UHGV virus genome: UHGV-0105470 | Strand: one strand, 5' to 3' | Source: a virus | DNA length: 35,353 nt | In this document: positions 14,126 through 28,949 of the stretch, one piece after another | How positions within the stretch are numbered: position 1 is the first letter of the stretch | Layout: each line of letters opens with the position of its first letter | The notes under the pieces: generated by a model | The model's database searches: none | The model's input: the letters and a program-made list of their open reading frames with translations, nothing else | What the model was told of the DNA's origin: nothing | Made by a program: the position numbers and the translations under genes

Positions 14126-14129
14126 AAAT

Positions 14130-14222
14130 TGGAGGAAGATACCAGACTTGAACTGGTACACCGATTTCTCAGCTACTGGCAGTTTAGCAAACTGCTCCCT
14201 TACCTTTTAGGGTTAATCTTCC
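14130..14222 (-). tRNA. tRNA-Ser (GCT), class II
   Basis: 93 nt; acceptor GGAAGAT/ATCTTCC; anticodon stem GCAGT/ACTGC with loop TTGCTAA; long variable arm; T-arm ACCAG-TTCAAGT-CTGGT. Confidence 0.85.
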
Positions 14223-14223
14223 A

Positions 14224-14958
14224 TTATTTCTGTAATGCGTTCTTCATTTCTGGTGTTGCAATAGTATCAATTACACCAGTTTTACAAGCATCATCAAACC
14301 AGTCTGGTAAGATACCTGCTAAGAACCCATTGATATTCGTTTTAAGGTACTCTGCAATAAGGGCAGCTTCTTCTTCAATCATCTGCACAACTTCATCTGC
14401 ATAAGCTGTAATCTTCGAGATACCTTCATTAATCTTACTAACAGCTTGGTTAGCTAAATCAGAAACAGTATCAAGACCTTTATCAATAGCATCTTGTAAG
14501 TCACTTAATACATCATTAACACCGTCTAGTGCACTGTTAATTGTGTCAATAGCTTTTTGACCATACTCTGTAGCAACACCCATAATACCACTAAATGGTG
14601 TACAACCAACTTGCTCTCCTGCTGCACCCATAACATTGGAGTAGCCTTTTGCTACCTGCATACGTGAGGAAAACTCATCAATAGACTTTTGACCATAATC
14701 TGTCAATGTCTTAGTGGTTGATGTAGTGCTTGTCAGACTCGTTGTAAAGCTATTAAGCAGAGCTGTTGTAAGTCCAGCAGCAATGAGCTTATCCTTCATT
14801 GTAGGGTCTGTTACAGAGCTAATAGAGCTTACAAGTGATGTAGAGGCAGCCACGGTTCCACCTAGAACTGCTGCACCAGTAATAAGGGGATTAGAAAACC
14901 CTCTACCGGTTTTTAAGAGATTAAAAATCTCCTTACCTTGTTCTGTCATCTCTTTCAT
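14224..14958 (-). CDS. hypothetical protein (Ser/Thr-rich N-terminal half, helical acidic C-terminal half) embedded in tRNA array
   Basis: ORF-track start (GTG at 15021) overlaps tRNA-Phe; ATG at 14956-14958 with SD AAAGGTG is the likelier start. Confidence 0.55.
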   Translation of the reverse strand: MKEMTEQGKEIFNLLKTGRGFSNPLITGAAVLGGTVAASTSLVSSISSVTDPTMKDKLIAAGLTTALLNSFTTSLTSTTSTTKTLTDYGQKSIDEFSSRMQVAKGYSNVMGAAGEQVGCTPFSGIMGVATEYGQKAIDTINSALDGVNDVLSDLQDAIDKGLDTVSDLANQAVSKINEGISKITAYADEVVQMIEEEAALIAEYLKTNINGFLAGILPDWFDDACKTGVIDTIATPEMKNALQK

Positions 14959-14974
14959 TAAGCACCTTTGAAAT

Positions 14975-15051
14975 TGGTAGTCCAGTGGGATTTGAACCCT
15001 CTTCTCATGTTTTTCAGACACGCGCTTTAACCATATAAGCTACTTGGACTA
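14975..15051 (-). tRNA. tRNA-Phe (GAA)
   Basis: Anticodon stem CGTGT/ACATG with loop CTGAAAA; T-loop TTCAAAT; acceptor TAGTCCA/TGGACTA; exact ends ambiguous by 1 nt. Confidence 0.7.
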
Positions 15052-15056
15052 TAAAT

Positions 15057-15132
15057 TGGGGTGACCTACGGGATTTGAACCCGTATAGACCATGTTCACA
15101 GCATGGGTCATTACCTTTTATGATAAGGCCAC
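15057..15132 (-). tRNA. tRNA-His (GTG)
   Basis: D-stem TCAT/ATGA, anticodon stem CCATG/CATGG with loop CTGTGAA, C73 discriminator, CCA encoded. Confidence 0.85.
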
Positions 15133-15163
15133 ATTTAAGGACTCTCGTAAGAACCCTTAGAAG

Positions 15164-15239
15164 TGGCAGCGGCATAAGGATTTGAACCTTAATAAGACAG
15201 CTTCAGAGACTGTTGCATTGCCAGTTATGCTATACCGCT
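15164..15239 (-). tRNA. tRNA-Gln (CTG)
   Basis: D-stem GCAT/ATGC, anticodon loop CTCTGAA, T-arm TAAGG-TTCAAAT-CCTTA, G73. Confidence 0.8.
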
Positions 15240-15244
15240 AAATT

Positions 15245-15323
15245 TGGTACTCCATATCGGATTCGAACCGATACATAACACAGATTTTAAGTCTGGCCTC
15301 TCTGCCAATTGGAGTAATGGAGC
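15245..15323 (-). tRNA. tRNA-Leu (TAA)-like, atypical class-I architecture
   Basis: 79 nt; acceptor GCTCCAT/ATGGAGT; anticodon stem CCAGA/TCTGT with loop CTTAAAA; variable loop only 7 nt; A73; T-arm ATCGG-TTCGAAT-CCGAT. Confidence 0.55.
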
Positions 15324-15325
15324 AT

Positions 15326-15401
15326 TGGCGGGGGATGTTGGAATTGAACCAACTTCTTCGATTTCAAAGACCGAGGTTTTAACCTTGTAAACTAATCCCC
15401 T
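15326..15401 (-). tRNA. tRNA-Gln (TTG)
   Basis: Acceptor AGGGGAT/ATCCCCC with 1-72 mismatch, D-stem GTTT/AAAC, anticodon stem TCGGT/ATCGA with loop CTTTGAA, G73. Confidence 0.8.
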
Positions 15402-15409
15402 TTAAATCT

Positions 15410-15967
15410 TTACTTTCTTAGTGGATGAATAAAGAATGCCAACATAACTCTTTCCCTTGAGAATGCTCTTTCTTCTGGGACAACACTTTTAAGTTTCCAC
15501 CCAACATAAATTCTCCAGTAGAATTGCTTACCAAAGACTTTAATTGACGGGATAAAAGCGAATAATCCCCAAGCATTACTGTTCCACATTAGGAGATAAC
15601 CTGTCTGATTATCTTCAGGGTTAGAACTTACATTGATATTACCTTTCCACTTAGTAACATCTTTTACATCTCTTCCTAACACATGGTAAGAGAAGTTATA
15701 AGCTTTGTTTCTCCAGAGCCAACCAACTCTCTGCATATAGACACCAAGCTTACCAATCTTTCTAATCTTAGCCCATCGTTCGACATGACCTTTATCACCA
15801 TCAATTGGGTTGTCATATGTCTCCATCCATCTGAATCCAAAAGGGAGATGTCCTTTCTTCTCACTGTAGAATGGAACTACGAAAGGTGCTAAGATAACTG
15901 CTAAGATTGCTGCAAATGGCTCTAACAAAGCTAAGAAAATCCATGAAGCATACTTCAAATATCTCAT
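15410..15967 (-). CDS. hypothetical membrane protein embedded in tRNA array
   Basis: 185-aa ORF with hydrophobic N-terminus (WIFLALLEPFAAILAVILAPFVVPF); flanked by tRNA genes. Confidence 0.55.
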   Translation of the reverse strand: MRYLKYASWIFLALLEPFAAILAVILAPFVVPFYSEKKGHLPFGFRWMETYDNPIDGDKGHVERWAKIRKIGKLGVYMQRVGWLWRNKAYNFSYHVLGRDVKDVTKWKGNINVSSNPEDNQTGYLLMWNSNAWGLFAFIPSIKVFGKQFYWRIYVGWKLKSVVPEERAFSRERVMLAFFIHPLRK

Positions 15968-15986
15968 CTAAATAGCCTCTTTAAAT

Positions 15987-16062
15987 TGGCGCAGGATAAG
16001 GGATTCGAACCCCTATTAACAGCTTCGTAGACTGTTGCTCTATCCATTTGAACTAATCCTGC
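15987..16062 (-). tRNA. tRNA-Arg (ACG)
   Basis: Acceptor GCAGGAT/ATCCTGC, anticodon stem ACAGT/GCTGT with loop CTACGAA, T-loop TTCGAAT. Confidence 0.85.
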
Positions 16063-16067
16063 AAAAC

Positions 16068-16145
16068 TGGTGTTCCAAGACGGATTCGAACCGTCACTAA
16101 TACAAGGTTTGAGCTTGCATCCTCTGCCAATTGGGATACTGGAAC
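16068..16145 (-). tRNA. tRNA-Leu (CAA)-like, atypical class-I architecture
   Basis: 78 nt; acceptor GTTCCAG/TTGGAAC; anticodon stem GCAAG/CTTGT with loop CTCAAAC; 6-nt variable loop; A73; shares AATTGGCAG D-loop with 15245-15323. Confidence 0.55.
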
Positions 16146-16146
16146 A

Positions 16147-16222
16147 TGGTACTCACTAAAGGACTTGAACCTTTTTTCTTCATCTTGTAAGGGTGATGTT
16201 TTACCATATAAACTAAGCGAGT
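16147..16222 (-). tRNA. tRNA-Val (TAC)
   Basis: Acceptor ACTCGCT/AGTGAGT, D-stem GTTT/AAAC, anticodon loop CTTACAA, T-arm AAAGG-TTCAAGT-CCTTT. Confidence 0.85.
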
Positions 16223-16318
16223 ATGAAAGAGGTCTGAAGTTGTGCCGCTAACTCAACTCCGTGGAATTTGTTATGGTCTTCAGTTGACTCAAAGCGGTCT
16301 TTCACTTGACCTCTAAAT

Positions 16319-16394
16319 TGGTGCTCCCACAAGGATTCGAACCCTGATAAGTTGCTTACAAGGCAACCGTAATAGCCAATTATACGATAGGAGC
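16319..16394 (-). tRNA. tRNA-Thr (TGT)
   Basis: Acceptor GCTCCTA/TGGGAGC, anticodon stem GTTGC/GCAAC with loop CTTGTAA, T-loop TTCGAAT. Confidence 0.85.
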
Positions 16395-16401
16395 ATTAAT
16401 T

Positions 16402-16476
16402 TGGAGCATCCAGAGGGAATCGAACCCTCAACCTCAGTTTGGAAGACTGTAATTTTCCCGTTTAAACTATGGATGC
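16402..16476 (-). tRNA. tRNA-Gly (TCC)
   Basis: Acceptor GCATCCA/TGGATGC, anticodon loop CTTCCAA, T-arm GAGGG-TTCGATT-CCCTC. Confidence 0.8.
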
Positions 16477-16482
16477 ACTAAT

Positions 16483-16558
16483 TGGTGGAGTCACTGAGAA
16501 TTGAACTCAGTTCCCAAGTTTGCAAAACTCGAATTTTAACCATATAAACTATGACCCC
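16483..16558 (-). tRNA. tRNA-Ala (TGC)
   Basis: G3-U70 wobble in acceptor (Ala identity element), anticodon loop TTTGCAA, T-arm CTGAG-TTCAATT-CTCAG. Confidence 0.85.
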
Positions 16559-16564
16559 ATTGCT

Positions 16565-16640
16565 TGGTACAGGTGGAGGGAATTGAACCCATCGTCTTAC
16601 TGATTAAGAGTCAGCCGCATAACCATTTTGCTACACCTGC
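16565..16640 (-). tRNA. tRNA-Lys (CTT)
   Basis: Acceptor GCAGGTG/CACCTGT, anticodon stem GCTGA/TCAGT with loop CTCTTAA; T-stem only 3 clean bp. Confidence 0.7.
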
Positions 16641-16647
16641 ATTAATT

Positions 16648-16725
16648 TGGTAGGAGACAAGGGATTCGAACCCTCAAACACCAACTTCTAAGGATGGTAG
16701 GTTTACCAATTACCGTCAATCTCCC
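16648..16725 (-). tRNA. tRNA-Leu (TAG)-like, atypical class-I architecture
   Basis: 78 nt; acceptor GGGAGAT/GTCTCCT (two G-U); anticodon stem CCATC/GTTGG with loop CTTAGAA; 5-nt variable loop; A73. Confidence 0.5.
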
Positions 16726-16977
16726 ATTAAATCTTTTTAGAGAACTTCTAAGAACCTAAGCAACAAGGTTCCACAACAAGCTGTAATAACCTTAGAAGCC
16801 CTCTAAAAAGACCTAATTTGGTCTTTGCATAGTCTTGTTTAATCCGGTGACTAGAACCTTTGGAGAGCTTGATATATCTCTTCTCCGTGACACCTACTAG
16901 GTGCTTTATCAGTGTACGACAATACACGAGGGATAAACCGAAAATGCGAGCAAGCATGGACGGTGTAAATCTTATTA

Positions 16978-17067
16978 GGCGGTAAGTAAAGGAGTCGAAC
17001 CCTCACCGTATCTCTACAGTGGCAACAGTTTTCAAGACTGTTTGGCTGCCATTAGCCGCTACCTACC
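16978..17067 (-). tRNA. tRNA-Ser (TGA), class II
   Basis: 90 nt; acceptor GGTAGGT/ACTTACC; anticodon stem ACAGT/ACTGT with loop CTTGAAA; long variable arm; T-loop TTCGACT; 3' CCA not fully encoded. Confidence 0.8.
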
Positions 17068-17080
17068 CCTAATAAGATTT

Positions 17081-17163
17081 TGGCATGGGACGGAGGAGTT
17101 GAACCCCTTTGAAACGGTTTTGGAGGCCGTTGCTCATGCCTTAGAGTCTTAACATCGTCCCAT
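17081..17163 (-). tRNA. tRNA-Trp (CCA)-like, atypical 83 nt
   Basis: Acceptor ATGGGAC/GTCCCAT, Trp-type anticodon loop CTCCAAA, T-loop TTCAACT, G73 CCA; 5' half about 7 nt longer than canonical. Confidence 0.5.
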
Positions 17164-17305
17164 ACTGTAATTCGAAGCTTACCGTATTTTCACAACACTG
17201 TAAAGCCCCTTCTCAGATTATTTACATGTTCTGGAAAACATGAGATACAGACCACCTCCTTACACGGAGACCCGATAAGGTCGTCTAAGCAATCTGCTAA
17301 CTATT

Positions 17306-17382
17306 TGGCACACCCTACAGGATTCGAACCTGTAACTCAATGATTAGAAGTCATTTGCTCTGTCCAGTTGAACTAAGGGTGC
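17306..17382 (-). tRNA. tRNA-Arg (TCT)
   Basis: Acceptor GCACCCT/AGGGTGT, D-stem GTTC/GAGC, anticodon stem AATGA/TCATT with loop CTTCTAA. Confidence 0.85.
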
Positions 17383-17629
17383 ATTAATCTTTAAAAACTC
17401 TCTTAGAAAGCCCTTAAAGATGCCCACCTTATTAATCATACCGTGGGCTAGTACGCCAAATTCTTTGATGAGGGATTGGAAGACCTCACTGGTGTTTAGC
17501 CTATCAAGCTACTGCCAGAAAAACATTGTCGTTTGCATTTATTTTAAATTTGCAAAATAGACGCTACGCAACGAAAACTAAGGTTACTATAAAGTGGTCA
17601 CATCTAAATGTCAACAACTTTATTGAAAT

Positions 17630-17705
17630 TGGTACTGGTAGGTGGAATCGAACCACCGATGTTCCCTTATCAGGGGAGTGTTATAACCTTCTTAACTATA
17701 CCAGC
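17630..17705 (-). tRNA. tRNA-Ile (GAT)
   Basis: Acceptor GCTGGTA/TACCAGT, anticodon loop CTGATAA, T-arm GGTGG-TTCGATT-CCACC. Confidence 0.85.
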
Positions 17706-17706
17706 T

Positions 17707-17782
17707 TGGAGGTTCAGATGGGATTCGAACCCACATTCATAGGGCTTATGAGACCCTTGCATTACCTTATCTGCGACTGAAC
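17707..17782 (-). tRNA. tRNA-Met (CAT); elongator, initiator or Ile2 not distinguishable
   Basis: Acceptor GGTTCAG/CTGAACC, anticodon stem AGGGT/GCCCT with loop CTCATAA. Confidence 0.8.
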
Positions 17783-17787
17783 CATAT

Positions 17788-17863
17788 TGGTAGAAGTGGA
17801 GGGATTCGAACCCATCGCCTGTCAGATTAAAAGTCTGCCGCATCACCATTCTGCTACACTTCC
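17788..17863 (-). tRNA. tRNA-Lys (TTT)
   Basis: Acceptor GGAAGTG/CACTTCT, anticodon loop CTTTTAA; paralogous in sequence to the Lys (CTT) gene. Confidence 0.8.
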
Positions 17864-17869
17864 ATTAAA

Positions 17870-18009
17870 TTATCTTTGTAGATAAGCTACCCAGACTTGC
17901 TTAAGGTCTGTAGCGATGTGCCTTGTTGGGTTTAAATCTAGAATTTACCCTTTCACCCTTTGTGGTCGCATACTCACAGGTAAGCTTAATAACTTATCTA
18001 CAAAGATAA
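17870..18009. repeat. 16-17 bp inverted repeat pair (ttatctttgtagataag / cttatctacaaagataa) flanking about 105 bp
   Basis: Exact reverse-complement 16-mers at about 17870-17886 and 17993-18009 inside the tRNA array spacer. Confidence 0.6.
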
Positions 18010-18060
18010 TTACCAGACCGTTGTTTATCATCTTAAGTGCTACCATTACACCAACTCGAC

Positions 18061-18140
18061 ATCTGCCGAGTGAAGGAATCGAACCTTCGCCTTTTCTTTA
18101 CCGGAGAAATAGATTGTTTAAGTTTTGCTGTAAACGGTCT
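18061..18140 (-). pseudogene. tRNA remnant (intact T-arm, no pairing acceptor stem)
   Basis: T-arm GAAGG-TTCGATT-CCTTC and stem-loop TTTCT-CCGGTAA-AGAAA, but no 5' strand complementary to ACTCGGC and C at loop position 33. Confidence 0.35.
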
Positions 18141-18154
18141 TCTGTAAATTTGTT

Positions 18155-18235
18155 GAGCCAGACCAAGTTTTAAATTTTCAAAATTAAATTGGCTTTAAAT
18201 TTTAAGTAACTTGCTGAATTTGGTCTTCTGCTCCT
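18155..18235 (-). ncRNA. conserved spacer stem element in tRNA array (one of four copies)
   Basis: CCAGACC(R) ... (Y)GGTCTTCTG ends with compensatory R/Y covariation across copies at 18011-18145, 18155-18235, 18558-18625, 18714-18796. Confidence 0.4.
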
Positions 18236-18291
18236 TTAAAGAATACTCGTAAGAACCCTTTAAGGGAGGGGCTAAATAGCCCTCTCAAAAT

Positions 18292-18368
18292 TGGCGGTTA
18301 CGATGAGACTTGAACTCACATCATCTCCCGTGACAGGGGAGTATTTTATCCAGTTAAACTACATAACC
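18292..18368 (-). tRNA. tRNA-Asp (GTC)
   Basis: Acceptor GGTTATG/CGTAACC, anticodon stem CTCCC/GGGAG with loop CTGTCAC, T-loop TTCAAGT. Confidence 0.85.
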
Positions 18369-18374
18369 TTTATT

Positions 18375-18462
18375 TGGTGTGCCGTGTAGGAGTCGAACCT
18401 ACCGAGTCTCAATGACAAGGGATTTACAGTCCCCACCGCTACCATCTACGGGATAACGACAC
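18375..18462 (-). tRNA. tRNA-Tyr (GTA), class II
   Basis: 88 nt; acceptor GTGTCGT/ACGGCAC; anticodon stem GGGGA/TCCCT with loop CTGTAAA; long variable arm; T-arm GTAGG-TTCGACT-CCTAC. Confidence 0.8.
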
Positions 18463-18471
18463 ATTTAAATT

Positions 18472-18548
18472 TGGCGGTTAGTCAGGGATTCGAACCCTGT
18501 GCCATTCGCTTAACAGGCGACCGCACATACCTTATGTGCTTCCTAACC
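18472..18548 (-). tRNA. tRNA-Asn (GTT)
   Basis: D-stem GCAC/GTGC, anticodon loop CTGTTAA, T-arm CAGGG-TTCGAAT-CCCTG. Confidence 0.8.
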
Positions 18549-18628
18549 TTAATATATTGCCAGACCGTGTTTTTTTTTCTTTTATCCGCAAAAAGTAGTT
18601 TATTGCTGCATACGGTCTTCTGCAAAAT

Positions 18629-18705
18629 TGGAGGCGGGTGCAGGAGTCGAACCTGCCGATGCCATGCTAATGAGACATGTGAGACGCCCTTTCTCTATAC
18701 CCGCA
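18629..18705 (-). tRNA. tRNA with CAT anticodon (Met or Ile2), second copy
   Basis: Anticodon stem CATGT/GCATG with loop CTCATTA (pyrimidine at 37), T-arm GCAGG-TTCGACT-CCTGC, 1-72 mismatch. Confidence 0.6.
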
Positions 18706-18796
18706 ATTCTTAATGACCAGACCAAATCTCTTCTTTGTCCGATTTAGCTTCAGATGAATAAGATTAAGTTTGCTGTAATTGGTCTTCTGTCAAAAC

Positions 18797-18874
18797 TGGC
18801 GTTCCAGAAGGGATTTTAACCCTCAAATATCCACTTTGAAAGAGTGGTGACTATACCATTTTGTCTACTGGAAC
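18797..18874 (-). tRNA. tRNA-Glu (TTC)
   Basis: Acceptor GTTCCAG/CTGGAAC, anticodon stem CCACT/AGTGG with loop CTTTCAA; unusual T-loop TTAAAAT (A at position 56). Confidence 0.75.
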
Positions 18875-18881
18875 ATTAATT

Positions 18882-18958
18882 TGGTCTCTGTTGGAGGACT
18901 TGAACCTCCGGCCTTACCGCCCCAAACGGAACACTCTACCAAGCTGAGCTAAACAGAG
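18882..18958 (-). tRNA. tRNA-Pro (TGG)
   Basis: C1-G72 acceptor CTCTGTT/AACAGAG, D-stem GCTC/GAGT, anticodon loop TTTGGGG, T-arm GGAGG-TTCAAGT-CCTCC. Confidence 0.85.
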
Positions 18959-19123: not shown

Positions 19124-20538
19124 TTACCAGATATAACGGTCAACCATTACTGCTTTGAGCATTACGCTGATTGGGTCAAACTTCTCACCACCAAGCAGAG
19201 CTTTTAAAGTGGCTGGAGAGAACCCTGATACCATCGCTACACCATTATCCTTAACAGATACTTCGCAAGTACCATTACGGTTTGCTAAGTACCAGAATAC
19301 TAGTTGTGGCATTTCGTATCCAGCTTTTTTGTACTTACTCTGAATTGCTTCAAAGTTTGTACGACCATTTGCACCATCAACCTGATTAAACTCCATATCA
19401 GAGAAGATAATAAGCTTACTTGGCATATCTTTCTGAGTCAAGTTGTTTCTCTTACCTATCTCAAGAATACGGTCAAAGCTGCTTGTAAGTTAGTTGAACC
19501 ATATTCAACATGACGCATTACCTGACGATGACGGTTTCGTAAATCACCACTCAGTTCAATGAAATGAGGGTTTGTTGAATAGACCATTAACTCATCTTTA
19601 AAGCAACCTGTATTGCGTTCTGCTACATACAAGGCAAGTGATACACCAATATCAAGGGCAGTGATTGAACCAAGATTCACCCAAGACATTGAGCTTGAAA
19701 CATCAGTCATACACAAGATGTTCTCACCTTCTGCCATCCAGTTTGGTAGTGCTTTCCACTGCTCATTAGCAACATCTGCATTACCATGCTTGATAGACTT
19801 AATCACATCGTATGGGTAGACAGCACCAGCATTAATCTTAGCCTCACCTTTTGATAAGGACTCAATGTAAGCTTTGTAGCGTTCTCCATCTTTGCGGTTA
19901 AAGAGCTTTTGGTAACGTGCAGCAGCAAGAGACGGAATCTTACTGTAATCAATCTTACCAAACTCATTAGCAGAGATTTTTTGCTCAACCGTATCAGACA
20001 GTGCAGATAACAGTGTGCGGTATTCTTTCTCGCTTAAGTTTGCAAACTTACAGAAACGTTTTACAAACTGTTTGTGTCGTGGTTTTACTCGTGGTAACCA
20101 CTTGGCTGCTAAACCTGCTGTCTCAGGGTCTAGTAATGCTGCTTCTAAATGCTTAAAGGCATCTGTCTCAAAACGAGTACCTACGAAGATTTTGAAGTCA
20201 TCAAAACGACCAAGTTCTGCAATCTTATCCATAATACGAAGAAACTGTGTAGGCTCTAAAACTTTATCTTCGATTGCTTGAAGTAAAACAGTTCTGAAGG
20301 CTTTACGCTCACCCATACCTTCTCGTACATCTCGCATGTGAAGCAAAATACGAACTGCAACATCAACATCCTCACGCAAAGCTTTGTAGAACAAGTCTGG
20401 TAAGATTTCTACATTGCTACGGCTTGAACCAGCAGCTTTGTAAAAGTCCACAAGAGCAGACATTGATGAAGTATGGTTTACAGCACCATTTTCAGTTCGA
20501 CCTGCATGAAGGTGCGCATGTTTAAATAATTCGCTCAT
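19124..20538 (-). pseudogene. vWA-domain protein gene (Ro60/TROVE-like?) interrupted by a frameshift
   Basis: ORF 19456..20538 carries MIDAS motif DVSSS and ends ...GSTNLQAALTVFLR*; ORF 19124..19441 in a different frame carries the downstream vWA motif LIIFSDMEF; the two frames overlap at 19456-19492. Confidence 0.6.
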
Positions 20539-20619: not shown

Positions 20620-20991
20620 TTATTTTTTGAGAGTCGCTACAGCAGAGAACGTTGGTTTGTTATCTGTCTGTGGTTGACCACCATTATCAGGAGTCTTCTT
20701 AGTGTCTGCTGCAAGTGCTTTCATCTCACCTGCTGAGTGAGTAAAGATAGTTTTACCGACCTCAATCATACTCTTGATGGTTACATCGTCTGTGTTTAAC
20801 CCGAACTCTGCAAGCTTAGCAGCATCCCTTGTAACAATCGCCTCAAACAGCTTTGCAGCAAACTCAGCAGAATTATCAATGGTCAGTTGAGCTTTTACGA
20901 GTGAGCTTTTGTTACGAGAGCCTTTTGGTCTTCCAGATGGGTTTCCAGATTGGCCTTTTTTAAACTGGCCTTTGTTTGTTCTGTTTTTCAT
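20620..20991 (-). CDS. hypothetical basic protein with N-terminal GNPxGRPKG motif
   Basis: 123-aa ORF; N-terminus NKGQFKKGQSGNPSGRPKGSRNK is a motif recurrent in small phage DNA-binding/packaging-associated proteins (recalled, not searched). Confidence 0.55.
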   Translation of the reverse strand: MKNRTNKGQFKKGQSGNPSGRPKGSRNKSSLVKAQLTIDNSAEFAAKLFEAIVTRDAAKLAEFGLNTDDVTIKSMIEVGKTIFTHSAGEMKALAADTKKTPDNGGQPQTDNKPTFSAVATLKK

Positions 20992-21240
20992 TGGTATGCC
21001 TCTTATAAGACCTCTTAAAAGGCTTTTAAGATAAAAGATAGATATCCAGAAAGATATCTGTTTAAATAGCCTTTTTAGAGGAACCTTTTAAGTTATCTTC
21101 TAAGTATTTATAAGCCTACACCTTGTCAAGTACTTTGTCAACAACTTTTTTAACTTGCAATAGTTCTTGACTTGTTGTATGGATTACTGTACCATCTTAC
21201 TTAAAGCTGTAGGTCTGCCTTGTTCTACAAAGGAGACTTA
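20992..21240. promoter_or_regulatory. divergent intergenic control region
   Basis: Between divergently oriented genes; contains TTGTCA/TTGACT hexamers, palindrome AGATATC-cagaaa-GATATCT and several CTTNNAAG motifs. Confidence 0.4.
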
Positions 21241-21402
21241 ATGAGAAAATCAAACAACCCGAAGAAAGGTAAAAATACCAATCACTGTAAGGAATCAAAA
21301 AGGGTAGAGTTACTCTACTATTCATCCTCTGAAATTGGTCTGTACCTGTTCTTTCAAAATTACAGAAGACAAGAGGATTATCTATGTGTAGTTCCCAATT
21401 AG
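21241..21402 (+). CDS. hypothetical small basic protein
   Basis: ATG at 21241 preceded by AAGGAGA; shorter than the ORF-track 21220 start. Confidence 0.4.
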   Translation: MRKSNNPKKGKNTNHCKESKRVELLYYSSSEIGLYLFFQNYRRQEDYLCVVPN

Positions 21403-21629
21403 AAATCGCAGATATTATAGATTTATATAAGACTGCAAAGAGTCATGGCTATATAACCTCAATTGGAAAGAATAGTCACTACGATGCTTTGACTGGAATG
21501 TATTTCAGGGCAATGGCTCAATCTAGTGAACAACACTTAATGGTTTCTTCCAGTGAGTTTACTTCGTTTCTCTATTGCAGCAAAATCATAAATCGCAGGA
21601 GAACTGAAAATGTTAACAGTAAGTTTTAA
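21384..21629 (+). CDS. hypothetical protein
   Basis: 81-aa ORF overlapping both neighbours by about 20 nt. Confidence 0.35.
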   Translation: MCSSQLEIADIIDLYKTAKSHGYITSIGKNSHYDALTGMYFRAMAQSSEQHLMVSSSEFTSFLYCSKIINRRRTENVNSKF

Positions 21630-22200
21630 TTATAATAGTGATGGCTCTGTATCAATTAATTCACCATATGCAAATGACCTATTGAAAGCGCTAGTTAATC
21701 AGTGTGATAGAGGTCTTCACTATGTCCCAAATTCTTTCAAGCAGAAGACTATTGCCAATAACCTGATGCGTGTGACGGTTACGACATCAAACCCAAACTA
21801 TGACATTGATAGTGAAAGTCCTTACTCTTTAGTGGCTCTTGGAGAATGCAGTCAATTTAAACTTGTATGCCACGACTCAGAAACATTTCTTAAGGTATTT
21901 TCCAACCTTATTCACAATAACAAGTATGGATATGTTGATGGTAGTGTTAACTTCTATCCAGCAAACTATACCTGTCTATTGATTGATAATATGAGAAACA
22001 GCAAGCAAGAGCCTACAGAAATTTCATTTGATGTGAACTCTAGTCCAGACGCAGAAACAAGTAATAACTTCGATATGAGTTACGCGCTATCACTCAGCAA
22101 GAAATCCGAGTTCATTGATTATGTCAATGGATTTGGTTTTAAGTTTGACGAGAGCATGAATCTCAAAAAACTTAAGAACCTACTTAAGACCAAAGCTTAA
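21610..22200 (+). CDS. hypothetical protein
   Basis: 196-aa ORF preceded by GGAG-like SD (aggagaactgaaaATG). Confidence 0.6.
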   Translation: MLTVSFNYNSDGSVSINSPYANDLLKALVNQCDRGLHYVPNSFKQKTIANNLMRVTVTTSNPNYDIDSESPYSLVALGECSQFKLVCHDSETFLKVFSNLIHNNKYGYVDGSVNFYPANYTCLLIDNMRNSKQEPTEISFDVNSSPDAETSNNFDMSYALSLSKKSEFIDYVNGFGFKFDESMNLKKLKNLLKTKA

Positions 22201-22247
22201 GTATAAACAGGGGCTGATGCCCCTTTATCTGTTTATAAGGATATTTA

Positions 22248-22619
22248 ATGAAGGCTAAGAGTGCAAAAGACTTTTATTGCTTCCTACAATCCTATATCCA
22301 CTCCGTGGAGAATGGTGAAAGATACAATCTTAACGATGTTATTGCATCACCTTTAACATGGAGAATGAGTAAATGGCCTGAAGAGGATATTACACCAACT
22401 GCCGAACAACCCACCTATAACCCAGAAATTAAACTCCCAGATTCAGATAAGTTACTATACCCAATGTTCCACATTGTCGGGCTTGGTACGTTTATCATGG
22501 ATATCCAGTATGTAATTGGTAAGGGTTATAAAGTTGAAGGTATTGTTGTTAGTGATGTGTCTCCACAACATAAAGGCTATTTTAGATTAAACGCACGTTT
22601 AGAGGCTAAAAAGAAATGA
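22248..22619 (+). CDS. hypothetical protein, paralog of the N-terminal domain of the next gene
   Basis: 123 aa; shares YxxF..F..G...V..GxRY.....Y.EAI.PLTY...WPEADI pattern with residues 1-120 of 22616..23746; stop overlaps next start (ATGA). Confidence 0.6.
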   Translation: MKAKSAKDFYCFLQSYIHSVENGERYNLNDVIASPLTWRMSKWPEEDITPTAEQPTYNPEIKLPDSDKLLYPMFHIVGLGTFIMDIQYVIGKGYKVEGIVVSDVSPQHKGYFRLNARLEAKKK

Positions 22620-23746
22620 TTAAAGCAAAGACTTACCCAGACTTCAAAGAATTTGTAAGGGGTTTCATTGCAAATGTAAAGGCTGGTAAGAGATATGATT
22701 TTAGAACATATCAAGAAGCTATTTTACCACTTACCTATAGTTCATATTGGCCTGAAGCTGATATCGCAGAAGTTGAGAAGTTTGACTACAAACCAGACTA
22801 CAAAGTACCTTTTAGTGATGATTTGCTTTACAGCATCGGTGCTCAAAGGAGAACTTCTGACTTCTTCATGGATTTACAATATGCAATTATCAATGGTAAA
22901 GACGTTGATACAGTGTATTGTGAATGGTTGGCAAGAGTTAAGCCGTTCTCAATGTTGAATGCTAAGTTGAAGGATGCCATTAAGCCACCAGTAATTACTC
23001 AGCAACCGACAAACCAAACAGTCAATGAAGGTGGAGCACTTACCCTAAGTGTTCTCGCAACTAATGCCACTGGGTATCAATGGAAGAAGGATGGCGAGAA
23101 TATCTCCAGTGCCACATCTGCAACCTATACAAAACAATCTGTAGTACCTTCTGACGCTGGTTCATACACTTGTGTTGTGACTGGTGCTGGTGGTTCTGTT
23201 ACTTCTAACCCTGCAACTATCACGGTAAAGGCTTTGCCAGTTATCACTCAGCAACCAGCAAATCAAGAAATCACTGAAGGTGAGACCTTAACGCTGAATG
23301 TTGTGGCAACTGGTGCAACAGGTTACCAGTGGAAGAAAGGTGAGGAAGTCATCCCAGACGCAACTGCTGCAACTTACACCAAAGAAGGTGCAACTGCTGC
23401 TGATGCAGGAAGCTACACTTGTGTTGTGACTGGTGCTGGTGGTTCTGTTACTTCTAACCCTGCAACTATCACGGTAAAGGCTTTGCCAGTTATCACTCAG
23501 CAACCAGCAAATCAAGAAATCACTGAAGGTGAGACCTTAACGCTGAATGTTGTGGCAACTGGTGCAACAGGTTACCAGTGGAAGAAAGGTGAGGAAGTCA
23601 TCCCAGACGCAACTGCTGCAACTTACACCAAAGAAGGTGCAACTGCTGCTGATGCAGGAAGCTACACTTGTGTTGTGACTGGTGCTGGTGGTTCTGTTAC
23701 TTCTAATGCGGCAACAGTTACAGTTAACCCAGCAGGGGAGGCATAA
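22616..23746 (+). CDS. protein with N-terminal domain plus three tandem Ig-like domains
   Basis: 376 aa; three 83-aa repeats with the Ig-type pattern GYQWKK(D/G)(G/E)E...AGSYTCVVTGAGGSVTSN; stop overlaps lysozyme start. Confidence 0.7.
   Translation: MIKAKTYPDFKEFVRGFIANVKAGKRYDFRTYQEAILPLTYSSYWPEADIAEVEKFDYKPDYKVPFSDDLLYSIGAQRRTSDFFMDLQYAIINGKDVDTVYCEWLARVKPFSMLNAKLKDAIKPPVITQQPTNQTVNEGGALTLSVLATNATGYQWKKDGENISSATSATYTKQSVVPSDAGSYTCVVTGAGGSVTSNPATITVKALPVITQQPANQEITEGETLTLNVVATGATGYQWKKGEEVIPDATAATYTKEGATAADAGSYTCVVTGAGGSVTSNPATITVKALPVITQQPANQEITEGETLTLNVVATGATGYQWKKGEEVIPDATAATYTKEGATAADAGSYTCVVTGAGGSVTSNAATVTVNPAGEA
23166..23706 (+). repeat. perfect tandem duplication, 249-bp unit (about 2.2 copies), encoding Ig-like domains 2 and 3
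   Basis: Sequence at x and x+249 matched in every block compared by eye from about 23166 to 23457; a diverged copy precedes at about 22990. Confidence 0.85.
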
Positions 23747-24210
23747 TGCAACTCTCAAGAAAAGGTTTAGAAGCCATTAAGTTCTTTGAAGGTCTGAAGT
23801 TAGAGGCTTACAAAGACTCTGCCGGAATCCCAACAATTGGGTATGGTACAATCCGTATTGACGGAAAACCTGTTAAGATGGGTATGAAAATCACGGCTGA
23901 ACAAGCTGAACAGTATCTTCTTGCAGATGTTGAAAAGTTTGTTGCAGCAGTGAACAAAGCTATCAATGTTCCTACTTCTCAGAATGAGTTCGATGCTCTT
24001 GTAAGTGAAACATACAACATCGGTATTACAGCTATGCAGGATTCTACATTTATCAAGCGCCACAATGCTGGTAATAAGGTAGGTTGTGCAGAAGCTATGC
24101 AGTGGTGGAACAAGGTTACAGTCAAAGGTCAGAAGGTCACTTCAAACGGTCTGAAAAATAGACGAAGAATGGAAGCTGACATTTATCTTGACAGTGTATA
24201 TCCAAAGTAA
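23746..24210 (+). CDS. endolysin, GH24 lysozyme (T4 e / lambda R-like)
   Basis: N-terminal FFEGLKLEAYKDSAGIPTIGYG matches the T4 lysozyme catalytic region (Glu, Asp, Thr); 154 aa single domain. Confidence 0.9.
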   Translation: MQLSRKGLEAIKFFEGLKLEAYKDSAGIPTIGYGTIRIDGKPVKMGMKITAEQAEQYLLADVEKFVAAVNKAINVPTSQNEFDALVSETYNIGITAMQDSTFIKRHNAGNKVGCAEAMQWWNKVTVKGQKVTSNGLKNRRRMEADIYLDSVYPK

Positions 24211-24219
24211 TATCTTCAT

Positions 24220-24243
24220 AGGCTCCTTCGGGAGCCTTTTTTA
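24220..24243 (+). terminator. rho-independent terminator after lysozyme gene
   Basis: AGGCTCC-ttcg-GGAGCCT hairpin followed by T6. Confidence 0.75.
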
Positions 24244-24261
24244 TTTTCTAAGGAGAAAACT

Positions 24262-24660
24262 ATGAAACTTTGGGCTAGTGACTTTGGGACTTTTAAGTAC
24301 ACTCGTAACGGTTCACTTGTACGCATCATTGGAAACAATGTAGTTTCAAGAGGCGACAAGGTGTATACACGGTTTACTGTAGAGCTTGTTGAACTGTCAC
24401 CTATTGAGTCTGTGAACAATGGCATGTTCAAGTTTGAGACTTACAATGTCAATGAGCATGGACAATTCAATCCTCTTGGTGAAAGTGGACTTGATATTAT
24501 TTCAGAGCACCCATTGACAAAAGAGCAACTTGCAGGTTACTATAAAACTGTTCTGGAAAGGCAGTTAGCAACACATGAACAAGAAGCTAACTACCATTTA
24601 CAGCATTGCGAAACTTTAAGAGCAAAAATCGAACAAGCAGAGAGAGGTTTTTATGAATAA
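24262..24660 (+). CDS. hypothetical protein
   Basis: 132-aa ORF with SD AAGGAGAAAA before ATG. Confidence 0.6.
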   Translation: MKLWASDFGTFKYTRNGSLVRIIGNNVVSRGDKVYTRFTVELVELSPIESVNNGMFKFETYNVNEHGQFNPLGESGLDIISEHPLTKEQLAGYYKTVLERQLATHEQEANYHLQHCETLRAKIEQAERGFYE

Positions 24661-25048
24661 TAACAGTCATATCCACGTTAAAGTTGATGTCAGTCGTTAC
24701 AGCGAAAATGAGGAACTAGACCTGCAAGATGCTCTTCTCTTTGAGAAGAATGGTAATCTCCATTTGCATTTTGAAGGTACAAACACATATCTCCACAGAT
24801 GCCGAGATGATGCAGATGGTTGCCCTGTTTTTGCTTGGTATAATTTAGAGTTTCCACTTTACGCAATCCATTATCCAGATGGTGGAGAAGACTGGACAAC
24901 TCAATCAATCTTTGATGAGCTTAACGGTATTCCGGTTGAGCAGGAAGAACAAGAGCCTGTTGAGCTTACCTTCACCTTCGTCAAAGAAGAAACGGTTGGT
25001 GATTTGTCAGTAACTGAAGCTATTCAGGTAACACAGGTCATTCGCTAA
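24653..25048 (+). CDS. hypothetical protein
   Basis: 131-aa ORF overlapping upstream stop. Confidence 0.55.
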   Translation: MNNNSHIHVKVDVSRYSENEELDLQDALLFEKNGNLHLHFEGTNTYLHRCRDDADGCPVFAWYNLEFPLYAIHYPDGGEDWTTQSIFDELNGIPVEQEEQEPVELTFTFVKEETVGDLSVTEAIQVTQVIR

Positions 25049-25341
25049 TGAGTAAAGTACAGGTTATTTTCCCTATTTGTGACTTCTCACTAGAACGTGA
25101 ACTTGACCTGTACGAAGAAATTACTGACGAAATCATCTGGTCTGTTGTAGAAGAGGCTATCAAGAAGTTGTATGGTGGCCTCTTAAACCCATCAAGTAAA
25201 AAGCTTAATACCAAACAAGTAGCTGATACGTACACGTCATATGATGCCTACAACAAACCTTTTGAGAACACCTGCTTTGACCTTATGGTAGGTAATAATA
25301 AAGTCAACTATTTCTTCGTCAGAGAGTTTAACGATGAGTAA
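25048..25341 (+). CDS. hypothetical protein
   Basis: 97-aa ORF, start overlaps upstream stop. Confidence 0.55.
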   Translation: MSKVQVIFPICDFSLERELDLYEEITDEIIWSVVEEAIKKLYGGLLNPSSKKLNTKQVADTYTSYDAYNKPFENTCFDLMVGNNKVNYFFVREFNDE

Positions 25342-25678
25342 GCTCCATGTCACAGTGTACAAAAACTTCTCAGATATCAAAGAGTCTTTAACAAATAAGC
25401 TTGACTTACAACGTAAAAGACTCTTTTTAATGTACGACATAGACAACTACAACCATCCTAAAGAGTTTAACTACAAAGATGGTACAAAGGTCGTTGAATT
25501 TGAAGATTCTGTAACGGTGTATGTCAAGCATGACTTACCAGCAAAGTACATAGGGATGTTAGAGTATTACATATTCAAACATACTGGTATGCGTGGTGAA
25601 TCTGTTAAGATATCTTCTATAGAAGTTTTTGAGAAACCTAACACACAACTTAAAAAGTATTTAATGAGGAAACTGTAA
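25334..25678 (+). CDS. hypothetical protein
   Basis: 114-aa ORF. Confidence 0.55.
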   Translation: MSKLHVTVYKNFSDIKESLTNKLDLQRKRLFLMYDIDNYNHPKEFNYKDGTKVVEFEDSVTVYVKHDLPAKYIGMLEYYIFKHTGMRGESVKISSIEVFEKPNTQLKKYLMRKL

Positions 25679-26259
25679 TGTCCGAAGAGCAACAGAATAT
25701 TACTCCACAAGTAACACTGGTACAACATTTTGGAAATATTGAAGGTTGTGTTGCACTTTTTCAACCAAGCATCAACTCTCCTGCAAAAGTCTGTAAGTTG
25801 ACTATGAATGTCAACAACATTAGTGTTTGTCTTGTTGAGGAAGTTCAGTACTTCAAGTTTAATGACAGAGAAGTTGATGCTGCACTTTTGAAGTATCGAG
25901 CAAATCTCGAAAAAGACATTGACCATAAAGAACTTGTAACACTGTTCGGTGACCTTCACAAGCTTCTTGAAAAGGTTATGAAGCGCACATACTACATGAA
26001 CAATGGTTCAATTATCACCACTCTGATTTCACCATGTATCTCAGAGCCAATCCTGACTGATGAAGGTGGGTACTATGTTGTAGCATCAGCAGATTCTGAC
26101 TGGTGGATGAAAAATACAGCACTGAAGACAGTAATTGAAGCCATTCGTGAGCATATCCCTTCATTCAGCCCGTGGAAAGGCAAAGGTGATGACTTCATCG
26201 CACTGTTGAGTGAAGAGAGTAACAAGAGAAGCGCATTACTGCCTAAAAAATACTCTTGA
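25678..26259 (+). CDS. hypothetical protein
   Basis: 193-aa ORF, start overlaps upstream stop (TAATG). Confidence 0.55.
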   Translation: MSEEQQNITPQVTLVQHFGNIEGCVALFQPSINSPAKVCKLTMNVNNISVCLVEEVQYFKFNDREVDAALLKYRANLEKDIDHKELVTLFGDLHKLLEKVMKRTYYMNNGSIITTLISPCISEPILTDEGGYYVVASADSDWWMKNTALKTVIEAIREHIPSFSPWKGKGDDFIALLSEESNKRSALLPKKYS

Positions 26260-26343
26260 CCGAATATACAATGTTAACTATGATGGGAGCTATCGAGAGG
26301 TAGTTCCCTTTTTTAGTTTCTTAAGAAGATGCGTGGTGAAAGA

Positions 26344-26562
26344 ATGAAAAAACTAACTACAGTTGAAGATTACTACAAGCTGTCCCTATTAGAACAATAT
26401 CGTAGAAGTCAGAATATCAGAAAATGCTATGGTAAACACGCTGAAGGTGACTTTTACCGTTGCTACGATGCAGATTTAAAAGGTGTAACACCTAGAGGGA
26501 AAGTCCTGCAAAGACTTGTTGACCTTGAGTGGAACAAACGATTGAGAGAGGTTGGAAAATGA
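26344..26562 (+). CDS. hypothetical small basic protein
   Basis: ATG at 26344 (MKKLTTV...) preceded by GGTGAAAGA; chosen over ORF-track start 26329. Confidence 0.5.
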   Translation: MKKLTTVEDYYKLSLLEQYRRSQNIRKCYGKHAEGDFYRCYDADLKGVTPRGKVLQRLVDLEWNKRLREVGK

Positions 26563-27062
26563 TTTACGAAGAAAGATATAAGATAGATTATCAGGATACT
26601 CGCCATCATACTTCTTTGAGAGTAACCAAACCAAATGGGGATACTGGTATCATAGCACATTTTGGTGGTGATTATTGGTACGGTACAGGTTGCTTTGAAG
26701 GCTACACTCAAGAATACCTGAAAGCTTTCTACAGAGACTTTACAAATGACTACAACAGGGTTGTTGACGAAAAGAATAAGTGCATTAAGCATGAACACCA
26801 TGCCAGAGGTTGTTTAAGTACGGTAATGGTACTGGCATTTTTCCTAGCAACATTACTGGCAGTATCAGCAATCAGTTCCATAGCTCAAGACTTAACCATT
26901 ACACAGATTACTGCAAAGGTATATGATGTTTGGTACTTGTATGCTGTCCCTTTAATTGGTATCATCATCTCACTACTAAGATTCAGAGTTCATAAGAAAC
27001 GACTTAAGGACTCGGAGATTAAACTTGAAGAGGTAAGTAAAGAATGCAACCTACAATTATAG
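26559..27062 (+). CDS. hypothetical membrane protein (two predicted TM helices)
   Basis: ATG at 26559 preceded by GAGAGAGG; hydrophobic segments VMVLAFFLATLLAVSAISSIA and VWYLYAVPLIGIIISLL. Confidence 0.55.
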   Translation: MIYEERYKIDYQDTRHHTSLRVTKPNGDTGIIAHFGGDYWYGTGCFEGYTQEYLKAFYRDFTNDYNRVVDEKNKCIKHEHHARGCLSTVMVLAFFLATLLAVSAISSIAQDLTITQITAKVYDVWYLYAVPLIGIIISLLRFRVHKKRLKDSEIKLEEVSKECNLQL

Positions 27063-27142
27063 CTGTATGTGTTCGTTTTGCAATCGCTGAAATGATTAAC
27101 AAGGCAATCTTGAAAGATGCCTATGGAGAGACTAAGCAATGA
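27044..27142 (+). CDS. possible small ORF (32 aa)
   Basis: ATG at 27044, stop overlaps next ATG (ATGA); below ORF-track size cut-off. Confidence 0.3.
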   Translation: MQPTIIAVCVRFAIAEMINKAILKDAYGETKQ

Positions 27143-27363
27143 TTAAGACACCTGTACCAATTTTTGGATTTCCTTCTATTGAAGAATTTAAAGTTTATCT
27201 TGACAAAAACTTCTACAATGAGCAGCCTGTTACTTTGCTGAAGAGTGACTTATCAGAGCTTCTTGATATGGTTATCAAGGCAACTTCTGAGAAGGAACCT
27301 GAGCAGAAAGCTGAGAAGAAGACTAGTAAGAAATCCGATAAGAAGACTGAAAAGTCTGAGTAG
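27139..27363 (+). CDS. hypothetical protein with Lys/Glu-rich tail
   Basis: 74-aa ORF. Confidence 0.5.
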   Translation: MIKTPVPIFGFPSIEEFKVYLDKNFYNEQPVTLLKSDLSELLDMVIKATSEKEPEQKAEKKTSKKSDKKTEKSE

Positions 27364-27369
27364 TAGCTT

Positions 27370-27394
27370 AAGGGGTTACTTGATAGCCCCTTTG
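27370..27394 (+). terminator. possible terminator hairpin
   Basis: AAGGGG-N11-CCCCTT stem-loop after stop of 27139..27363; weak T tract. Confidence 0.4.
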
Positions 27395-27416
27395 TAGAAA
27401 CTTAGAGGGTAGCGAA

Positions 27417-28293: not shown

Positions 28294-28306
28294 TGGTGTG
28301 ATAGAT

Positions 28307-28855: not shown

Positions 28856-28865
28856 AATATCTTAA

Positions 28866-28890: not shown

Positions 28891-28949
28891 AATTTTTATA
28901 AAATTTTATCGGTTGTTCCAACCTCTGGGTCACCATCATATGTGAATAA

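Follow-up and report, generated by a model that had tools for sequence, protein, structure and literature searches.

A short palindromic box enriched throughout a Felix O1-like phage genome and shared by a divergent intergenic region and the terminal non-coding region

The divergent intergenic region at 20992-21240 of the virus genome UHGV-0105470 contains several short palindromes of the type CTTNNAAG, and the question that it raises is whether these belong to one family with similar motifs in the non-coding DNA at 29800-30400, and what may read them. A preliminary description of this DNA had proposed that the two are control regions for a common DNA-binding regulator. The window in the following text means the whole stretch of 35,353 nucleotides that was analysed. 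By megablast, the window was assigned to Felixounavirus (Felix O1-like myophages), with 90–93% identity to many phages of E. coli, Salmonella and Shigella. Phages of the Felix O1 type are classic tools of typing and biocontrol, and the reference genome paper describes their temporal regulation as not understood (PMC3185647). The window is laid out as follows.

Up to 20991, minus strand: packaging and structural genes
14050-18958: 26 tRNA genes, within the minus-strand packaging and structural block
20620-20991, minus strand: last gene of this block, the DUF5681 gene, for a 123-aa basic protein homologous to Felix O1 ORF41 (Pfam PF18932, E 2e-14)
20992-21240: divergent intergenic region
21241-28855, plus strand: genes including that for the endolysin
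28856-30833: non-coding stretch of about 2 kb
30834 onward, minus strand: small early genes

Direct reading and a pattern search located all of the boxes cited earlier, and also the palindrome AGATATC-N6-GATATCT. In the whole window, CTTNNAAG occurs 68 times, compared with 19.1 expected from dinucleotide shuffles, none of 100 of which reached 68, and with 26–27 expected under Markov models of order 2–3. When the spacing in CTT-N-AAG was varied from N0 to N12, N=2 alone was elevated in the window. The divergent region (20992-21241) has five copies against 0.27 expected, and the terminal non-coding region (28856-30440) has 14 against 1.3; neither count was reached in any of 2000 local dinucleotide shuffles (P<0.0005 in both regions). 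Eleven of the copies lie within 29800-30400, and the 11-mer CCTCTTAAAAG is found in both regions, at 21011 and 29818. The null models comprised mononucleotide and dinucleotide shuffles, Markov models of order 1–3, synonymous-codon and codon-order shuffles, and these dinucleotides at other spacings. Every one of them was exceeded, with z from 5 to 14, and the explanation by chance, in which the motif count is an outcome of the AT-rich genome, is therefore refuted and receives practically no credence from us. The proposal of a motif family common to the divergent region and 29800-30400 was thus borne out, by counts above those of the shuffles and by identical 11-mers, and genome-wide the frequency lies far above, and not at, the level of the AT-rich background.

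CTTNNAAG is the AT-rich subset of an 8-base box, CT-N4-AG; in this subset, position 3 is T and position 6 is A. Seven such boxes were counted in the 250-bp divergent region, and six of these were individually positioned, three on each side of a central hairpin.

21002-21104: cluster of CT-N4-AG boxes around the central hairpin/palindrome, six boxes positioned
21002-21009: box CTTATAAG, adjoining the DUF5681 ribosome-binding site (AAGAGG in reverse complement)
21013-21031: perfect 19-bp palindrome TCTTAAAAG-G-CTTTTAAGA, formed by two inverted boxes
21014-21021: box CTTAAAAG
21023-21030: box CTTTTAAG
21040-21059: inverted repeat AGATATC-CAGAAA-GATATCT, invariant in 17 relatives
21071: box CTTTTTAG
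21085-21092: box (C)CTTTTAAG
21097-21104: box CTTCTAAG, additional to those of the preliminary description
21113-21141, minus strand: leftward sigma-70-like promoter (TTGACA, 17-nt spacer, TAGGCT), from sequence reading
21167-21195, plus strand: rightward sigma-70-like promoter (TTGACT-17-TACCAT) for the unit from ATG 21241, fully conserved

In the leftward promoter, TTGACA is the reverse complement of 21136-21141 and TAGGCT that of 21113-21118, and a second TTGACA is located at 21124-21129. A promoter is annotated at the equivalent place in the ASO1B record, and promoter P41 of Felix O1 was reported at the corresponding place (PMC3185647). With a promoter at 21113-21141, the box cluster falls within a leader of about 110 nt of the DUF5681 gene, the transcription start of which is a predicted position. 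The stretch from 21010 to 21105 is almost invariant across 17 distinct relatives, and the adjoining coding sequence varies. A like layout was found in the divergent region of ORF96/97 of Felix O1, where a double TTGACA is followed by boxes, a hairpin (AACGTAT-AGA-ATACGTT) and further boxes, the last of which is at the ribosome-binding site; this region is among the densest box windows of the Felix O1 genome.

The terminal non-coding region contains 57 CT-N4-AG boxes, including 26 tandem pairs 10–13 bp apart, and 30 boxes of a second type, YTAACA/TGTTAR. Its features are the following.

28856-30440: terminal non-coding region, between two convergent transcription units
28864-28889, plus strand: terminator closing the plus-strand unit
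29479-30045: direct terminal repeat of 567 bp, placed by homology to two records
29487-29992, minus strand: about 19 co-oriented TGTTA(A/G) direct repeats (YTAACA on the plus strand), with a spacing of exactly 11 bp
29821-30200: sub-arrays of CTTNNAAG and CTYTATAG with 10–11-bp phasing, at 29821, 29831, 29842, 29852, 29899, 29909, 29920, 29943, 29998, 30071, 30103, 30171, 30182 and 30193
30023 and 30034: two inverted TGTTA copies, at the right boundary of the terminal repeat

The two records that place the repeat are those of vB_EcoM-Ro111lw, with an identical 613 bp at both ends, which map to 30045 and 29479, and of Citrobacter phage HP1 from a different genus, the annotated 570-bp repeat_region of which maps to exactly 29479 and 30045. 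The ends of Ro111lw are a PhageTerm result (PMC6454146). In several other records, the first or last base falls within 10 bp of 30045 (about 30036-30045). The direct terminal repeats of Felixounavirus measure about 580–613 bp, and that of UAB_Phi87, 608 bp, was shown experimentally (PMC4837284); the GenBank record of UAB_Phi87 was rejected for locating the repeat, because its start is not the physical end. Inverted copies of TAGCCC(CC)TTAACA adjoin both repeat boundaries, and the left boundary is the sole part of the terminal region that can still be aligned with Erwinia phage phiEa104. By homology, then, 29479-30045 probably contains the physical genome ends, or concatemer junction, of this phage. 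From this position and the bracketing terminators, 29800-30400 is the right part of the repeat with its flank, and not the second control region that it had been taken for. When the terminal region was compared with that of Citrobacter phage Mordin, the CT..AG shell was kept in 37 of the 57 boxes, 18 of those being identical 8-mers, whereas control 8-mers kept the same four positions 34% of the time; the shell was thus better conserved than the inner bases. With the coordinates of the terminal repeat, Felixounavirus assemblies can also be oriented correctly.

When every dinucleotide pair with a gap of 0–8 was scanned without bias, CT-N4-AG was by far the top signal of 28856-30440 (57 boxes against 10.7, z 14). 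In the same scan, AG-N3-CT was likewise enriched in these arrays, and the two together define an 11-bp unit. Examples of the box are CTTAACAG, CTAACAAG, CTTTTAAG, CTTAAAAG, CTTGTAAG, CTTTATAG, CTCTATAG and CTTTACAG, mostly 10–12 bp apart. The window outside the two clusters contains 308 boxes against 149 (z 13), and CT-N4-AG ranks first there among 256 pairs x 12 spacings. Within the 48 genes (27.3 kb), 248 boxes were counted against 126 from synonymous-codon shuffles (z 13.5, ratio 1.96), and the enrichment is seen in all three reading frames (1.6–2.6-fold) and in nearly all genes. The other spacings from N0 to N15 gave ratios near 1 in coding DNA, CTAG being depleted (0.65). Codon-junction bias was rejected as the cause, since the other in-frame spacings N1, N7, N10 and N13 are not elevated. 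The leading trinucleotide pairs are CTGNNAAG, CTTNNAAG, CTTNNCAG and CTANNAAG, and the inner four positions of the box are A/T-rich in the arrays and nearly unconstrained in coding DNA. In the complete genome of Felix O1 there are 841 boxes against about 396, with every 5-kb bin 1.5–4.9-fold enriched. The idea that the motif is confined to two loci did not hold: CT-N4-AG is about 2-fold enriched across the whole genome, coding DNA included.

The boxes are phased as well. The distances from box to box in the window peak at 11–12 bp even outside the arrays, with 16+16 pairs compared with 2.8 expected per distance, or 5–6 times expectation, and 38 box pairs at this spacing fall in genes or minor spacers. 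For Felix O1, the distances around 11–12 bp gave 23/29/19 pairs against 6.9 expected. The enrichment is common to other genera of the Ounavirinae, with ratios of 2.0–5.1 in Pectobacterium phage Wc4, phiEa104, Mordin and two metagenomic relatives (2.0–2.9 when Mordin is left aside), and it is lineage-specific: none was seen in a distant marine relative (ratio 1.1), in 50 kb of E. coli K-12, in a bacterial contig or in phages that are unrelated (0.85–1.13 overall). In Wc4, the boxes of the divergent and the terminal regions have both become CTGTTAAGA. The consensus of IHF was not enriched (3 against 3.45 expected). The existence of the boxes, their enrichment, their phasing and their conservation are thus direct observations. 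Searches of the literature for Felix O1 repeats, origin, DUF5681 and CTNNNNAG found these box arrays nowhere described, and, as far as we found, the searchable literature describes no box that is defined by sequence, helically phased and present genome-wide in a subfamily of virulent phages.

Enrichment, phasing of about one turn, conservation of the clusters and retention in other genera fit protein-binding sites, and from them we infer that a protein binds to the boxes, which protein this may be, and what its binding would do. The common regulator of the preliminary description stands to this extent, the binder itself staying putative; a shared DNA-binding factor for both regions is plausible. 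The reading that we favour, tentatively and as somewhat short of probable, is that CT-N4-AG is the site of one Ounavirinae-specific protein, which acts cooperatively and occupies arrays at the terminal repeat and in the DUF5681 leader, the DUF5681 protein being the candidate. The box would then be a low-information (weak) binding site of a Felix O1-like phage protein that binds cooperatively to boxes one helical turn (11–12 bp) apart and nucleates at two kinds of site, the long terminal-repeat arrays and the leaders of two operons. At 29479-30045, the complex may mark the concatemer junction or the genome ends for packaging; in the DUF5681 leader, downstream of the sigma-70 promoter and ahead of the start codon, it may feed back on expression. 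The binder would be the DUF5681 protein, a probable small terminase with an AT-hook-like basic arm. Purifying selection on individual coding boxes appears as a weak trend, the conservation of coding boxes being 0.872 compared with 0.831 for matched CT/AG dinucleotides at third codon positions (one-sided P=0.076), and so weak an excess counts against this reading.

The DUF5681 protein has an invariant AT-hook-like arm, KKGxSGNPxGRPKGSRNK. In four of five distant contexts, DUF5681 genes are located directly upstream of, or overlapping, terminase large-subunit genes, which belong to at least two large-subunit families. The position just upstream of the terminase large subunit is the canonical one for a small terminase, and by this gene context the DUF5681 protein is probably a small terminase. 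In the Ounavirinae, the DUF5681 and large-subunit genes are parted by tRNA arrays and a few other genes. The AlphaFold2 model of the protein is helical and of low confidence (pLDDT 67). A PDB sequence search and a Foldseek search with the model gave no significant match, the small terminases of G20c and P74-26 appearing at E 3.6–4.6, and the PHROGs entry reads 'unknown function'. A Pfam analysis of 29 window proteins detected no DNA-binding domain besides the DUF5681 arm; ORF85 of Felix O1, an HTH_3 protein, is encoded outside the window. The annotation of the Felix O1 reference record includes no small terminase subunit, and to our knowledge packaging-site recognition in Felix O1-like phages has not been worked out. 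Within the window, the DUF5681 protein would be the best and most economical candidate binder. The same N-terminal arm is present in other DUF5681-bearing phages and in the marine relative, which are without CT-N4-AG enrichment, indicating that the arm alone cannot specify CT-N4-AG. We also know of no reason why a small terminase should require boxes within each gene.

The motif that dominates the terminal repeat is YTAACA/TGTTA, a box distinct from CT-N4-AG, and one rival reading of it involves a host protein. The terminal repeat contains 22 YTAACA/TGTTAR boxes against 1.4 expected from local shuffles, TTAACA occurs 20 times against 1.6 expected from the remainder of the window, and TGTTA pairs on one strand with a spacing of exactly 11 bp number 12, every one of them in 29308-30034, with none elsewhere in 35 kb. 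Conservation is 0.98 in the TGTTA boxes compared with 0.87 in the spacers. ArcA-P binds 2–5 direct repeats with a TGTTA core and a centre-to-centre spacing of 11 bp (or 22 bp) (PMC4173790). A reading that we consider doubtful takes the array as a giant putative binding site for host ArcA-P, which would couple end recognition, replication or packaging to redox, and leaves the CTTNNAAG boxes to another factor. The core, the direct orientation, the exact 11-bp spacing and the multiplicity of the repeats are all as in ArcA-P operators. The TGTTA boxes also stay constant across genera while other box types change, with arrays in phiEa104 and Felix O1, and the marine relative has, upstream of a -35 element, 4–5 tandem 11-bp TTTATTAAATG units, which are almost the classical ArcA box GTTAATTAAATGTTA. 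Disruption of Salmonella arcB raises resistance to Felix O1, but the authors ascribed the effect to global RpoS-related changes, it was also seen with a T5-like phage, and arcA itself is not mentioned in that paper (PMC8744999). Moreover, ArcA-P operators are 2–5 repeats at promoters, whereas the phage array has about 19 in the terminal repeat and its likeness is known from sequence, and a phage-encoded winged-helix or other protein could read an equal geometry. The divergent region (20992-21241) contains 0 YTAACA/TGTTAR boxes. What the two regions have in common is therefore something other than the TGTTA signal, and ArcA would leave the cluster in the divergent region unexplained; the CTTNNAAG boxes, unlike ArcA-P sites, have neither the TGTTA core nor the G-T contacts. 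As an array of its own, the ArcA-like repeat suggests a possible link of the host redox state to phage DNA processing.

For the cluster itself, the position between the predicted promoter and the start codon invites an explanation at the RNA level, in which the leader, through hairpins and boxes around the Shine-Dalgarno sequence, acts as a structured RNA controlling translation or stability of the DUF5681 message, the terminal boxes serve packaging, and the likeness of the two comes from a genome-wide bias. The leader RNA, of which AGATATC-N6-GATATCT forms the apical hairpin, has a predicted fold of -28.4 kcal/mol, compared with -19.5 for shuffled versions (z -2.7), 1 in 200 of which folded equally well. 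In a relative of 69% identity, the hairpin arms are replaced by AGAACAT-AGAAAG-ATGTTCT, with both arms changed and complementarity kept, and more CT-N4-AG boxes lie around the replaced hairpin. In the leaders of ORF41 and ORF97 alike, the last box adjoins the ribosome-binding site, and the enrichment throughout the genome means that boxes arise everywhere. We nevertheless judge this explanation unlikely. An Rfam scan of 20900-21300 matched no family, the sole hit, to a microRNA model from plants, having E 0.2 and falling far short of the gathering score, and within Felixounavirus the sequence is invariant, so that covariation cannot be read there. In phiEa104, the paired boxes are kept as TCTTTAAAG-G-CTTTTAAGA, in which the CTT..AAG shell is intact while a changed inner base costs the larger palindrome a base pair and breaks it; this pair is upstream, not downstream, of the best DUF5681 promoter and hence would be outside that transcript. 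The regulatory geometry is accordingly not conserved, which also weighs against the favoured reading, and the retained shell together with this position argues for a role at the DNA level. The helical phasing, which is found also in coding DNA and in the terminator-bracketed region, is a DNA-level property too. A DNA-level role could in principle do without any specific protein, if the phased AT-rich boxes formed curved or bendable DNA at the ends and the promoter and CT..AG were a by-product. The 10–12-bp phasing of A/T tracts such as CTTAAAAG and CTTTTAAG and the A/T-rich inner positions in the arrays are as curvature would have them, but curvature does not require an invariant C-T...A-G shell, the enrichment in coding DNA holds with the inner positions nearly unconstrained, and the shell is conserved better than the inner bases. 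This makes curvature very unlikely as the explanation.

Comparison with known systems places the proposed cooperative binding to CT-N4-AG in context. By analogy, and not homology, T7 would be the nearest match for the terminal arrays. Like the present phage, T7 is virulent with a short exact terminal repeat, which together with its flanks is full of imperfect short boxes at a spacing of about one turn. Its repeat is 160 bp, the short-repeat arrays SRL and SRR lie beside it, and by sequence reading its left end contains CCTAAAG about 15 times within 1-340. Here too, short-repeat arrays are present inside and directly beside the terminal repeat, as placed by homology, and the T7 box resembles the phage box (CTAAAG compared with CTTAAAAG). 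The T7 unit is, however, the 7-mer CCTAAAG, whereas the 8-mer shell CT-N4-AG and TGTTA are used here, and T7 (Autographiviridae) is unrelated to the Ounavirinae. We do not know of T7 carrying its box genome-wide, and the function of the T7 arrays is reportedly, after Dunn and Studier in 1983, still unclear.

In SPP1 pacL/pacR and the R sites of lambda cosB, repeated boxes flank the cleavage sites and presumably wrap around an oligomeric small terminase. In the present phage, boxes flank and fill 29479-30045, adjoining the inferred cleavage positions, and the candidate binder is a probable small terminase. The pac and cosB systems have a handful of sites at one locus, whereas the box here is enriched also in nearly all genes and in two operon leaders, and unlike in those systems the probable small-terminase gene is 8 kb from the cut sites. 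The phage-encoded p6 protein of phi29 binds all along the genome from nucleation sites in the terminal regions, and serves both to organise the ends and to control promoters; it recognises bendability with a 24-bp period, and not a sequence motif, in contrast to the defined shell and 11–12-bp period seen here, and a p6 homologue was not found. The over-representation of CT-N4-AG across the genome, beyond codon usage, is of the kind known for Chi, KOPS and uptake-type motifs. Unlike these, CT-N4-AG has no strand or orientation polarity, because the CT..AG shell is its own reverse complement and the inner positions are nearly unconstrained in coding DNA.

In the GenBank records of KhF1, KhF2 and XTG1, from this phage group, a repeat has the label 'possible binding site of StbAB'. 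ParR/StbB centromeres (parC, with 11-bp iterons) do resemble it in their tandem boxes of about 11 bp, and cooperative binding of a small dimer is conceivable. No gene for a partition ATPase or a ribbon-helix-helix protein was found among the window proteins, and none is annotated in Felix O1; with no partition genes present, the ParR/StbAB label was rejected. The phage, moreover, is virulent, its DNA is linear, and a need for partition is not obvious.

A wider reading, possible in our view and rather unlikely, is that CT-N4-AG is a 'chromosome code' of the Ounavirinae. A putative phage protein would read the palindromic 8-bp shell genome-wide at intervals of one turn, nucleating at the terminal repeat and the operon leaders, and would organise the DNA, protect it or mark it as self. 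Such a code, if true, would serve packaging choice or shielding from host nucleases, and a virulent phage in which one protein read the box throughout the genome would have a system of chromosome organisation that is defined by sequence; no description of a sequence-defined genome-wide architectural motif for a virulent phage was found in the searchable literature. A box that is present at the genome ends and in two major operon leaders, and at double frequency in the genes, provides a testable handle on regulation and packaging recognition, with a candidate binder named in DUF5681, the probable small terminase.

Some copies of CTTNNAAG belong to other structures. Those in tRNA genes (for example at 16184 and 16355) are probably anticodon stem-loop sequence, as judged from the coordinates alone. 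The copies at 31510, 32176 and 32973 occur in a different context, as the stems of GGGGCTTA...TAAGCCCC terminator hairpins.

Inverted copies of TAGCCC(CC)TTAACA adjoin both boundaries of the terminal repeat (window 29479-29492 and 30034-30049), reading GGTAGCCCTTAACA on the plus strand and GCCCCCTTAACA on the minus strand. Both boundary copies are fully conserved among the relatives, and they are candidate contexts for the terminase cut sites. A run of overlapping TATATAG and CTATATAG units (ctctatatatagttatatagtactatatagtatcttagtatctatctag), located to the left within the flank of the terminal region at window 28985-29035, is 100% conserved among the relatives.

On the early-gene side of the terminal region, the small early genes are preceded by a recurring intergenic cassette of about 75 bp, of which the following copies, among others, were located.

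30613-30682, intergenic cassette
31184-31279, intergenic cassette
32398-32482, intergenic cassette
33451-33525, intergenic cassette

The cassette reads TTTAGAATCTCCTAGTTTAAGG..., followed by a hairpin of either GGGGAAGG..CCCTCCCC or GGGGCTTA..TAAGCCCC, and the matches to CTTNNAAG at 31510, 32176 and 32973 are located within these hairpin stems. Repeats of 57 bp and 39 bp have been reported for Felix O1 and are probably the counterparts of this cassette. Two to three small genes separate the terminal region from the homologue of 30834-31175 in Mio, warpig, Felix O1 (ORF22-23) and HP1. These genes are missing from window 30440-30833, where all that is left is an ORF of about 44 aa on the minus strand (~30481-30615).

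CT-N4-AG boxes were also observed inside coding DNA. The gene at 27139-27363 contains four of them within its coding sequence, at window 27287-27330, with a spacing of exactly 12 bp and in the order CTGAGAAG gaac CTGAGCAG aaag CTGAGAAG aaga CTAGTAAG. In Felix O1, the boxes of the homologous stretch (14951-15250) are more densely clustered than anywhere else except the terminal region. CTAG, i.e., CT-N0-AG, was depleted in the coding DNA of the window to 0.65 of the synonymous-shuffle expectation, which is opposite in direction to the CT-N4-AG excess. Such depletion of CTAG is the usual pattern in enterobacteria.

A second divergent promoter region, between DNA polymerase ORF96 and ORF97 of Felix O1, lies outside the window (63493-63728, equivalent to 18493-18728 of L082, a stretch of that genome), and its architecture matches that of window 20992-21141. 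A double TTGACA is followed by CT-N4-AG boxes, the hairpin AACGTAT-AGA-ATACGTT and further boxes, the final one being fused to the ribosome-binding site. ORF97 itself matched Pfam Phage_term_smal at a sub-threshold level (E 0.048). In a marine relative from the Tara metagenome (L077, ~3518-3812), the equivalent divergent region has four to five perfect tandem 11-bp TTTATTAAATG repeats, with a TTGACA -35 element immediately downstream of them. The repeat unit is almost identical to the classical ArcA box, GTTAATTAAATGTTA, and the relative shows no CT-N4-AG enrichment (ratio 1.13).

The DUF5681 gene, presumed to encode the small terminase, and the presumed large-subunit gene (12004-13620) are kept about 7 kb apart by 26 minus-strand tRNA genes (14050-18958). 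The DUF2828/TROVE-like 'RNA-binding protein' gene (19124-20538, minus strand) is present as two ORFs instead of one.

19456-20538, minus strand, first part, profile positions 1-373
19124-19441, minus strand, second part, profile positions 379-476

In Felix O1 (ORF42) and other relatives this gene is undivided, at about 471 aa, and the split is due to a frameshift/stop or else to an error in sequencing.
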